Assembly: GCA_964634365.1 (NCBI GenBank)
Contig: CAZWJU010000003.1
Coordinates: 1 to 34,889 of the forward strand
Origin: an uncultured Candidatus Saccharibacteria bacterium
GTDB taxonomy: Bacteria > Patescibacteriota > Minisyncoccia > Phycocordibacterales > UBA9973
Reading direction: 5' to 3'
Length of the DNA stretch: 34,889 nt
Under the pieces are notes generated by a model. It saw nothing but the letters and a program-made list of their open reading frames with translations. It was not told the DNA's origin and did not search any database. Made by a program: the position numbers and the translations under genes. Below, in pieces: positions 23,711-26,294 of this stretch (positions are counted from its first letter, which is position 1; each line of letters opens with the position of its first letter).

Positions 23711-24943
23711 TTAATACCAACGAGTTGTCTCTGTGTGAACTCGCGAAAGCCCCCTATCTCCAGAAAACTCCGAAATTACCGCAAGTTCACTATATGGGTC
23801 TACTCCATCTGGTCTGATTTCTACAATCAGAATTTTTCCATCGATAAGACTTTCATCTTTAACAACAAAAGAGTGCTCAGTACCAGGTGCGATAAATGCA
23901 GAATCCCCGGGAAAAAGATCGCTGAACTTACCTTCGCCCCAATGAAGCGTGACTTTTGTGTTTCCGATATTGTACACCCAGCGATCTTTCTGTACTGATT
24001 CAAAAAAGCCAACACTTGAAGAAAAAATTCTTTCGAAAATTTTACTTTCCGGTTGAGATTTGTTGTTCACTAAAAATAAATTCACTTGGTCGGTTCCGTG
24101 ACTTACCGCGTCATGATGCTTGTAAATAGAAACTCCACCTTTAAAATCATCGAGGGCGAGATTTTTGGTGTAATCTTTTATGATCGTTTTAACACCGCTT
24201 AAATACTCTTCCAAGGAAAGATTACTTATCGAATTTTTGAACATCGGATCGGCTATAGCACCACCGTACGTTACAGCGAGGATTAAACCCCTGCCCTCTT
24301 CCCTTGTTGTAAAGGTATGGGGAACAAATGGTGAAATGTAATTTGTATCACCGGTATTCATCTTCTCGACATGGCGTTTGCCATACTGATCAATCCAGTA
24401 GAAATTTACCGGACCAATAAAATACGTAATCTGGTGTTCGAAGTGTCCTTTGTTGAAAGCCCAATCGGGCAATTCATCTGCCGATTCTCCGTCATGAACA
24501 TAGAGTTCCTTGATCCACTCCGGACGAAATGTAGAGATATTGCTCATGGCAGTATCTGCATAATCGTAATATGGAATCTCCATAGGCCCCCTTGATAGGG
24601 TGCGTTTGCTCGCCATAGTCTCAGAAAACTTCATAGTCCTGACACCTTCGACAGTATCGTCTATTACCGGGAAAGAATCTACAAATTCCGCAGGATAAAA
24701 ATCTCGTTCATTTATCCCTGTGATAGAAATAAGCTTGTTTTTTAACTCTTCGGTAAATTCAATTTTACCTGAAATCGTATCTTCTAATAGGAGCGGGTCT
24801 ACACCAATCAGCGGACCAGCGGTCTGTGGCGTGTGTTTAAGGCCATTTAAAAGACCTCTAACAACCGAACCGATGTTTTGTTTGTAATGGTACATCTTTA
24901 TTAAATTTTCTAGATTATATAGGAAAGTTAGACTATTCGCCAC
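23711..24943 (-). CDS. bi-cupin non-heme Fe(II) oxygenase of the HEPD / methylphosphonate synthase (MPnS) family; the motif pattern favours MPnS
   Basis: Architecture is HTH-like alpha domain + cupin, twice. The first cupin carries NKGHFEHQITYFIGPVNFYW...NYISPFVPH, giving H167-x3-Q171, F181, I203 and H209. It is the last gene of an operon that makes 2-hydroxyethylphosphonate. Confidence 0.7.
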   Translation of the reverse strand: MANSLTFLYNLENLIKMYHYKQNIGSVVRGLLNGLKHTPQTAGPLIGVDPLLLEDTISGKIEFTEELKNKLISITGINERDFYPAEFVDSFPVIDDTVEGVRTMKFSETMASKRTLSRGPMEIPYYDYADTAMSNISTFRPEWIKELYVHDGESADELPDWAFNKGHFEHQITYFIGPVNFYWIDQYGKRHVEKMNTGDTNYISPFVPHTFTTREEGRGLILAVTYGGAIADPMFKNSISNLSLEEYLSGVKTIIKDYTKNLALDDFKGGVSIYKHHDAVSHGTDQVNLFLVNNKSQPESKIFERIFSSSVGFFESVQKDRWVYNIGNTKVTLHWGEGKFSDLFPGDSAFIAPGTEHSFVVKDESLIDGKILIVEIRPDGVDPYSELAVISEFSGDRGLSRVHTETTRWY

Positions 24944-26294
24944 TCCCAGGAATCAGTGTCAAAATCTCTTTTATTGGCATGCATATTTTTTCAGCATCTC
25001 CACATCCGTTGTTCTCCAAGATATTTTCTGCAGTCTTTACCATCGCTGGATATGCACTTCGAAGAAGATGGTTTGCATATATAACAATTTTTACACCATG
25101 CTCAATTAGCTCGGCTTCTGTCACAGAGCTATATGTACTTGGTACCACAACAATTGGAACTTTATGTTTAAATTTTTTATATTCTTTACAAAAAGTGAAA
25201 ATCTCGTCTGGAGTTTTTTCTTTGCTATGTATCATTATTGCATCAGCCCCTGCTTCTATGTATGCTTTTGCTCGCTTTAGTGCATCATTCATCCCTTTAT
25301 TTAAAATAAGACTCTCAATTCTTGCGACAATCATAAAGTCACTTCCTACTTGAGCTTTTTTGCCTGAGCTTATCTTATGAGAAAATTCTTCTATACTATC
25401 TTGTGTTTGATTCTCGTGAGCATTACTAAAGAGGGAGTTTGATTTCAATCCAATTTTATCTTCAATTATAACAGCAGACACACCTAGTCTTTCCAGTGTC
25501 TTTACCATCAATGCAAAATGTTCCGGGAAACCGCCGTTGTCAGCATCGACTATCATCGGCTTTGTTGTGACTTCAAATATCTGATCTATTGTGTTTTGTC
25601 GTGAACTAAAATCCACAGACCCATTGTCTGGTTTACCTTTGGCCACAGAGTCGGTCAGACTAGAGAGCCACATACCGTCAAACTCTCTTACTTCTTCCCC
25701 TTTTTGGATTTTTGCCTTTTCTACGATTCTACCAGTAAGGCCATTGTGAACTTCTAGAATTCTAACTAAAGGTTTAACAGAAATATATTTTCGAAGCGAC
25801 TTCATTCTAGTCTCTGGTGTTATACCTTGACCTACGAGTGCTTCTATCAGATCTGTGGTTGAAGGAATGCTTTTTATACGTTTTGGCTCAACAACCATTC
25901 CTCCGTATTCACTAACTGCCTTCATTACTCTGTTTCTTTTCTCTGCCTGAACACCAATCTTCCAATCATCTCCATGAACAAAAAAATCGGGTTTTAATCT
26001 TTTTATTATAGGAACATAGTCATCACTCTCTTGTTTTACAACCGCATGCACACCTTTTATATTTTCAACTATTGATTTACGTTGTTCATAGCTTGATAGT
26101 GGGACTCTTTTGTATCTGGCAATTGCTTCATCGGTCAATAATCCGACAGTTACCTTACCTAGCTTTGCACCTTCATTTATTATATAAATATGACCATAAT
26201 GAATCAGATCTACCGCCATCGGCAAGTAAACTATTTTATCTTTCTTATTTTTTGTTTTTTTAGAAGCAGAAGTTACTTTATTTTTTGCTTTCAT
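24933..26294 (-). CDS. pepM: fusion protein: N-terminal HxGH cytidylyltransferase domain + C-terminal phosphoenolpyruvate mutase
   Basis: N-domain: VDLIHYGHIYII.. and ..IPSTTDLI (TagD/ECT-type CTP-transferase motifs). C-domain: LEVHNGLTG.., MWLSSLTDS.., MIVDADNGG.., and the PepM-diagnostic IIEDKIGLKSNSL (EDKxxxxxNS). Confidence 0.9.
   Translation of the reverse strand: MKAKNKVTSASKKTKNKKDKIVYLPMAVDLIHYGHIYIINEGAKLGKVTVGLLTDEAIARYKRVPLSSYEQRKSIVENIKGVHAVVKQESDDYVPIIKRLKPDFFVHGDDWKIGVQAEKRNRVMKAVSEYGGMVVEPKRIKSIPSTTDLIEALVGQGITPETRMKSLRKYISVKPLVRILEVHNGLTGRIVEKAKIQKGEEVREFDGMWLSSLTDSVAKGKPDNGSVDFSSRQNTIDQIFEVTTKPMIVDADNGGFPEHFALMVKTLERLGVSAVIIEDKIGLKSNSLFSNAHENQTQDSIEEFSHKISSGKKAQVGSDFMIVARIESLILNKGMNDALKRAKAYIEAGADAIMIHSKEKTPDEIFTFCKEYKKFKHKVPIVVVPSTYSSVTEAELIEHGVKIVIYANHLLRSAYPAMVKTAENILENNGCGDAEKICMPIKEILTLIPGSGE

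Follow-up and report, generated by a model that had tools for sequence, protein, structure and literature searches.

A Fom1-type cytidylyltransferase–PEP mutase fusion beside an MpnS-like gene in a Patescibacteria genome: probable CMP activation of a pathway phosphonate

Introduction

Phosphoenolpyruvate (PEP) mutases (PepM or Ppm) are often joined to nucleotidyltransferases: in one survey, 59.5% of Ppm enzymes were fusions, the partner being PF12804 in 33% of Ppm, PF01467 in 23.6% and both domains in 2.9% (Rice et al. 2019, PMC6697681). The PF01467 fusions are "exemplified by the Fom1 CyTase", a cytidylyltransferase (CyTase or CyT) that converts cytidine triphosphate (CTP) and 2-hydroxyethylphosphonate (HEP) to the cytidine monophosphate (CMP) adduct CMP-HEP (Cho et al. 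2017, cited in PMC6697681); the activity and the fusion are repeated in reviews (PMC9088020, PMC8976061). Some clusters hold a fused nucleotidyltransferase plus an unfused one nearby (PMC6697681). Here we analyze a fusion gene of this kind on contig CAZWJU010000003.1 of an uncultured Candidatus Saccharibacteria bacterium (Patescibacteriota; assembly GCA_964634365.1), the 34,889 nucleotides of which are called the window. A sequence-only reading of the window had described an HxGH-type cytidylyltransferase fused in frame to a PEP mutase and proposed that the first and, presumably, the last soluble step of a phosphonate pathway share one polypeptide. The best-supported reading, to which we give a probability of about 80%, is that the protein would combine CMP activation of a phosphonate with the step that forms the C-P bond.

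Results

Sequence and domain structure of the fusion protein

Exact-coordinate translation of the fusion gene gave a single minus-strand open reading frame (ORF) with no stop or frameshift and with both domains in one frame (Table 1). Residues 29-150 match PF01467 (CTP_transf_like) at 50.1 bits and residues 175-426 match PF13714 (PEP_mutase) at 191.5 bits, above the respective Pfam gathering scores of 21 and 31.5, and the in-frame fusion described earlier is thus confirmed. The C-terminal part is a full PepM, as had also been claimed. It reaches 383.8 bits with the NCBIfam equivalog TIGR02320 'phosphoenolpyruvate mutase' (cut-off 319.55), Mytilus PepM (1m1b) aligns to residues 165-447 (E = 3e-42), and the true-PEP-mutase signature EDKxxxxxNS (Rice et al. 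2019, PMC6697681) is present as EDKIGLKSNS. An assembly artefact was rejected, because each of the 120 best homologues has the same fusion.

In phmmer searches, the solved structure closest to the N-terminal domain (N-domain) was 5x3d, in which the CyTase domain of Streptomyces wedmorensis Fom1 is in its HEP-CMP-bound form (E = 1.8e-40); human ECT was matched at 7e-15 and Bacillus subtilis TagD at 7e-9. When an AlphaFold2 model of residues 1-163, built with 22 homologues (mean predicted local distance difference test score 85.8), was compared with known folds by Foldseek, 5x3d again ranked first (template-modeling score 0.92, root-mean-square deviation 1.2 Å, 53% identity) and TagD second (30% identity). 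Fom1 itself stood outside our alignment and tree and was compared through these phmmer and Foldseek alignments. The N-domain scored 49 bits against the TagD equivalog TIGR01518, below the cut-off of 165.4. Because 5x3d is the best match in both sequence and fold and TIGR01518 failed, we conclude that, by sequence and model, the N-domain is a member of the Fom1 subfamily of the HxGH superfamily and not a TagD. The HxGH (GCT/TagD-superfamily) class assigned to it by the sequence-only reading was therefore right. It is not of the PntC/LicC type, since the 453-residue protein matches only PF01467 and PF13714, and PF12804 is found in a separate gene of the window.

The TagD/ECT-type motifs reported before, HYGH and RIKSIPSTTDLI, are intact. 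H32, G34 and H35 are invariant in our alignment (A1); the HxGH, YKR and HGDDW stretches are conserved; and H32, G34, H35, K62, W111 and S145-T-T are all in place and (near-)invariant among HEP-type relatives. The loss of catalytic residues that the earlier reading had allowed for was not seen, both the HxGH and the ISTT-type motifs being kept. A catalytically dead N-domain, serving as a structural or regulatory appendage of PepM, seems to have arisen in Fibrobacter/Bacteroidales and Verrucomicrobiales clades with HPGL and TPAH variants of the motif; with its own motifs intact, the window protein is very improbably such a case, and we rejected it.

In the RIKSIPSTTDLI region, a one-residue insertion and an Arg were found only in the window and in L001, a locus from a Patescibacteria metagenome-assembled genome (MAG). 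Both read (K)RI(K/E)SIPSTT(D/N)LI, compared with a subfamily consensus of PYTxGI-SSTxL, and are closer in look to the TagD/ECT motif RTxGISTT.

The same R-x-x-S-I-P-STTDLI stretch, nearer to canonical GCT/ECT enzymes than its counterpart in most Fom1-type sequences, can be cited for a plain TagD function, in which the N-domain would make cytidine diphosphate (CDP)-glycerol from glycerol-3-phosphate for a TagF-like transferase and its fusion to PepM would be incidental. Indeed, the genome has a TagF/TarL-like gene and no stand-alone TagD; the only other PF01467 proteins found in it were a CoaD fusion and NadD, with no other GCT-type enzyme. We nevertheless rejected this function, which the sequence-only reading had also kept in view, on the failed TIGR01518 match, and consider it most improbable: identity is 30% to TagD versus 53% to Fom1, and in thousands of homologues the domain is fused to PepM, mostly without a TagF-like neighbor. 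In addition, Lys44 and Lys46 of B. subtilis TagD, which we used as marker residues of that enzyme, align to Y61 and R63 in the phmmer alignment. CoaD of this genome occupies the N-terminal portion of a 366-residue ORF (G000:C2:228041-229141; L074:1042-2142), in which TIGR01510 matches residues 4-161 and about 200 further residues follow.

Distribution of the fusion and conservation of its motifs

At least 8000 homologues were found in a collection of 5.8 billion proteins, and PF13714 and PF01467 occur together in 120/120 of the best of these at least 8000. Some homologues bear the JGI name 'phosphoenolpyruvate phosphomutase / 2-hydroxyethylphosphonate cytidylyltransferase'. We also compared the neighborhoods of related loci (one genome per species), together with a tblastn census. 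Seventy-two loci encode a relative of the fusion protein, the N-terminal CyT domain being present in 70, and these loci span Patescibacteria, DPANN archaea, Fibrobacter, Bacteroidales, Pelagibacteraceae, SAR86, Verrucomicrobiota, Desulfobacterota and others. As Fom1-type fusions make up roughly a quarter of PEP mutases, the CyT::PepM layout is ordinary, already known and common. This answers the question of frequency that the sequence-only reading had raised and gives no support to the rarity, relative to LicC/PntC fusions, that it had implied; the paper it cited for mainly LicC-type PntC enzymes itself counts PF01467 on 23.6% of Ppm and names Fom1 (PMC6697681).

An iron-dependent alcohol dehydrogenase (Fe-ADH) gene is part of the cluster in 36 loci, mostly directly after that of phosphonopyruvate decarboxylase (Ppd), which corresponds to the HEP route. 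Ten loci have a 2-aminoethylphosphonate (AEP) transaminase, with an adjacent PF12804 PntC-like gene in 8/10, and in another ten, nine from Fibrobacter and one from a 'Deltaproteobacteria' MAG (L041), Ppd is followed by a metallophosphoesterase. MpnS homologues occur in six related loci (from Woesearchaeota, a mis-binned DPANN-like MAG, SAR86 and three Pelagibacteraceae), so the combination of CyT::PepM with MpnS is recurrent.

The HxGH motif follows these contexts. Both histidines are kept in 37/37 Fe-ADH loci, whereas one of them is lost in 19/20 loci without Fe-ADH (9/10 AEP-type and 10/10 metallophosphoesterase-type), a locus count that overstates the statistics because only two independent clades lost the histidine. 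Hence the intact domain appears tied to the HEP route. The pattern fits a Fom1-type domain serving the HEP branch and PntC serving the AEP branch, and in clusters where PntC has assumed the activating role, the fused domain is possibly a pseudo-enzyme. Histidine loss together with the AEP route and PntC could explain the presence of two nucleotidyltransferases in many clusters. The variant motifs are HPGL, in 21 Fibrobacter/Bacteroidales loci (e.g., L037:10001-10450 and L045:10001-10450), and TPAH, in two Verrucomicrobiales loci (L025:5237-5680 and L031:889-1310); the two clades sit on long stems (0.46 and 0.38, respectively).

With 76% overall identity, and 66% over the CyT domain alone, L001 is the locus nearest to the window (SH-aLRT 95). 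L001:6748-17968 corresponds to window positions 18711-29645, with the same order of Ppd, ADH, 307-aa gene and CyT::PepM and the same convergent TagF-like/LicC-like gene pair. Where the window has the MpnS-like gene and a back-to-back pair of methyltransferases, L001 instead carries a UDP-glucose-dehydrogenase-like fragment and a GT4 glycosyltransferase. Because the operon is otherwise the same, HEP is the likely substrate in L001, and by this comparison MpnS looks like an add-on to a HEP-decoration cassette; MpnS and the two methyltransferases look like a block that was gained by, or lost from, that cassette.

The nearest homologues of the fusion protein come from Patescibacteria. PepM homologues were found in 10 of 400 other sampled Patescibacteria genomes (~2.5%) and the full fusion in four; none of the PepM-bearing genomes belongs to the same family, order or class sample. 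The window falls in a clade that mixes candidate phyla radiation (CPR) and DPANN sequences (SH-aLRT 98). At 36.7%, the GC content of the phosphonate core is close to that of the genome (37.0%), and a recent horizontal transfer visible by composition was rejected on this ground. Taken together, the patchy distribution in the phylum, the mixed CPR/DPANN clade and the matching GC content suggest old lateral spread among ultra-small prokaryotes, with no sign of recent insertion. In the phylum sample, some PepM homologues (G085, G351, G366 and G399) match the mutase domain only, in frames of 499-601 residues; these carry other N-terminal fusions, possibly of the PF12804 type.

The operon and its neighbors

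The host genome (753 kb, 9 contigs) is 100% complete by marker genes. The fusion gene lies in a minus-strand glycan operon in the order three GT4 genes, Ppd, Fe-ADH, 307-aa gene, CyT::PepM and MpnS-like bicupin, with a polysaccharide deacetylase, two S-adenosylmethionine (SAM) methyltransferases and one GT4 further downstream. The operon thus includes both Ppd and a candidate for the HEP-forming Fe-ADH. These two adjoin each other, in agreement with the fusion-Ppd-ADH order of the 36 related loci, and the 307-aa gene separates Fe-ADH from the fusion. No Pfam or NCBIfam family matched the 307-aa gene product, whose L001 homologue is 69% identical and occupies the same position. A Pfam scan of the 30 window ORFs gave no radical-SAM match; a FomD homologue was not specifically sought.

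As expected of a methylphosphonate (MPn) cluster, the operon has an MpnS-type bicupin with equivalents of the iron-ligand and gate residues. The protein matches Nitrosopumilus maritimus MpnS (6b9s) at E = 4.5e-56 and HepD (6b9r) at E = 7e-41. In the alignment to 6b9s, its H167, Q171, F181, I203 and H209 correspond to MpnS H148, Q152, F162, I184 and H190. In MpnS, H148, Q152 and H190 are the iron ligands and F162 and I184 the gate, as reportedly found by Born et al. 2017. At the F162/I184 positions HepD 6b9r has Y and G. This Tyr/Gly counterpart is diagnostic of HEPD (PMC8976061). The fusion gene, through its stop codon, shares 11 nt (24933-24943) with the MpnS-like ORF as listed, with a GTG start, which suggests translational coupling if that start is used.

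The separate LicC-like gene that had been pointed out in the window is indeed there, with PF00483/PF12804 matches and an intact GRGTRx8PK loop, and the best PDB matches of its product are Tde-PntC (6pd1, 4.5e-14) and LicC (1jyk, 1.3e-13). A homologue follows ADH directly in six DPANN operons, none with a TagF-like gene; their order is CyT::PepM, Ppd, Fe-ADH, LicC-like (L005:14023, L007:14018, L009:13602, L011:8219, L013:5712 and L072:10941). In L010 and L033, a homologue adjoins MpnS. Relatives are rare in Patescibacteria, with 3 matches in the 400 sampled genomes, one of them 2 kb from PepM. Since the gene recurs in related phosphonate operons, it probably belongs to the pathway, and its product is more likely a second phosphonate-pathway member than a TagF-specific supplier of CDP-glycerol. 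In another Patescibacteria genome, a 33%-identical relative (G264:C78:2775-3470) lies inside a 507-residue open frame and so has a fusion partner; that genome, which is 79% complete, yielded no PepM.

The TagF-like gene has links of its own. A homologue follows ADH directly in L018 (L018:6324-7466), a Saccharibacteria locus with the order CyT::PepM, Ppd, Fe-ADH, TagF-like, and others flank the cassette in L032 and L001, a placement that makes the window gene a reasonable candidate for the CMP-phosphonate transferase. The link of the LicC-like gene to the core is thus independent of that of the TagF-like gene. No LicD was found in the genome.

Table 1. Features of the phosphonate locus in the window
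Feature	Coordinates	Strand	Basis or remark
Bifunctional Fom1-type cytidylyltransferase::PEP mutase (predicted)	24933..26294	-	453 aa
N-terminal CyTase domain, residues 20-152	25839..26237	-	PF01467, 5x3d match
HxGH motif, H32-Y-G-H35	26190..26201	-	Exact-coordinate translation
RIKSIPSTTDLI, counterpart of GCT-family RTxGISTT motif	25845..25880	-	Exact-coordinate translation
Inter-domain linker LVGQGITPETRM	25803..25838	-	G(T/I)TP part kept across fusions
PEP mutase domain, residues 165-450	24945..25802	-	TIGR02320, 1m1b
EDKIGLKSNS signature	25434..25463	-	Exact-coordinate translation
MpnS-like bicupin	23711..24943	-	Directly downstream of fusion; 6b9s match
307-aa gene, candidate transferase	26348..27271	-	Between Fe-ADH and fusion
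Fe-dependent alcohol dehydrogenase, phosphonoacetaldehyde reductase candidate	27371..28525	-	PF00465/PF25137
Phosphonopyruvate decarboxylase (Ppd)	28515..29645	-	TIGR03297 485.4 bits vs cut-off 312.5
Separate LicC/PntC-like nucleotidyltransferase	18711..19418	+	PF00483/PF12804
TagF/TarL-like CDP-alditol phosphotransferase, candidate CMP-phosphonate transferase	19421..20494	+	PF04464 4.4e-57; TarL 8va1 1.3e-17

Discussion

The likely role of the N-domain, as its sequence relationships indicate, is CTP-dependent activation of the pathway phosphonate for transfer to a surface glycan. In the proposed pathway, the C-terminal PepM domain would convert PEP to phosphonopyruvate, Ppd would convert phosphonopyruvate to phosphonoacetaldehyde, Fe-ADH would reduce the latter to HEP, and the MpnS-like enzyme would oxidize HEP to MPn. 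The N-terminal HxGH domain would use CTP and the pathway phosphonate (HEP, as in Fom1, and/or MPn) to produce CMP-phosphonate and pyrophosphate. A transferase of the locus, for which the TagF-like enzyme and the product of the 307-aa gene are the candidates, would then move the phosphonyl group to the surface glycan and release CMP. We base this on the domain identities, the intact catalytic motifs, the close homology to the HEP cytidylyltransferase and the operon context; which substrate is used (HEP or MPn), that a transfer follows and what the acceptor is are deduced from these. Of the earlier proposal that the first and last soluble steps reside on one polypeptide, the fusion stands as described, and CMP activation of a phosphonate is the best reading offered by homology and context.

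Several observations weigh against this reading. MpnS would consume free HEP, so a HEP-specific CyTase would compete with it. No alignment column distinguishes MpnS-type from HEP-only clusters in their CyT domains, and MpnS-bearing rows are scattered over the tree, where the label requires 4 changes for 4 rows. The association of HxGH with Fe-ADH comes down to only two independent histidine-losing lineages. Finally, it could be the second, intact LicC/PntC-like nucleotidyltransferase of the locus that in fact activates the phosphonate.

The two nucleotidyltransferases might also divide the labor, the fused CyT domain being strictly HEP-specific and the LicC/PntC-like enzyme activating MPn or another head group; the glycan would then bear two groups, or the fused domain would never activate MPn. 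The only characterized homologue of the fused domain does use HEP, the best solved relatives of the LicC-like protein are Tde-PntC and LicC, and homologues of its gene are found after ADH in the six DPANN operons, beside MpnS in L010 and L033 and, in one of three cases among the sampled Patescibacteria genomes, 2 kb from PepM. However, both nucleotidyltransferases are also present in HEP-only operons (L001 and the DPANN loci), so the second is not tied to MpnS, and the Pelagibacteraceae loci and Woesearchaeota L006 have MpnS and the fusion with no LicC-like gene found within 10 kb. We consider such a division unlikely.

For the fused domain as phosphonate activator, sequence does not decide between HEP, MPn and both as its substrate. 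More tentatively, and at somewhat less than even odds, we suggest that the Fom1-type domain of MpnS clusters was recruited for the synthesis of CMP-methylphosphonate (CMP-MPn) with no change apparent in its sequence. We found no literature report of this compound, and Acker 2022 and Lockwood 2022 make no mention of cytidylyl activation or fusions. If true, CMP-MPn would be the missing activation step for esterifying MPn to surface glycans, such glycan esters being the proposed precursor pool of aerobic methane, and it would be made in a groundwater-type CPR bacterium rather than in a marine archaeon or SAR11. With the layout being ordinary, the value of the locus lies in its context, an intact Fom1-type domain encoded beside an MpnS-like gene in a very small CPR genome. 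For the activation of MPn or HEP and its attachment to glycans, compact operons of this sort would be simple test constructs.

Compared with described systems, the N-domain shares the superfamily fold and the HxGH and (R)TxGISTT-type motifs with TagD, ECT and CCT, but is only 20-30% identical to them, fails the TagD equivalog and differs at the K44/K46 equivalents. PntC (LicC-type, PF12804; Tde-PntC 6pd1/6pd2) likewise makes CMP-phosphonate from CTP and a phosphonate and is often fused to Ppm. It has an unrelated fold, a Rossmann-like GT-A type NTP transferase as opposed to the HxGH nucleotidylyltransferase fold, and prefers AEP, whereas the window domain is of the other class. The PF01467::Ppm class of Rice et al. 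2019 has the same architecture, a cell-surface glycan setting and an extra unfused nucleotidyltransferase in the cluster; that survey covered RefSeq genomes, and the window copy comes from a 753-kb Patescibacteria genome.

The MPn clusters of N. maritimus and Pelagibacter have the same four core enzymes (ppm-ppd-pdh-mpnS), and Pelagibacteraceae and SAR86 loci have a CyT::PepM fusion beside an MpnS homologue, as in the window. The window differs from the N. maritimus and Pelagibacter clusters in its CPR host and in the length of the MpnS-like protein (410 versus 457 residues). The closest likeness is to Fom1 of the S. wedmorensis fosfomycin pathway, which has an N-terminal PF01467 HxGH CyTase and a C-terminal PEP mutase in the same order and works with a Ppd and an Fe-ADH that produce HEP, as in the window. 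The CMP-HEP of the Fom1 system serves as a temporary handle for the radical-SAM methylase Fom3, and FomD hydrolyzes it afterwards. In the window, by contrast, the fusion belongs to a glycan operon with an MpnS-like enzyme, which makes it more likely that the CMP adduct donates a group, possibly MPn, for decoration of the surface.

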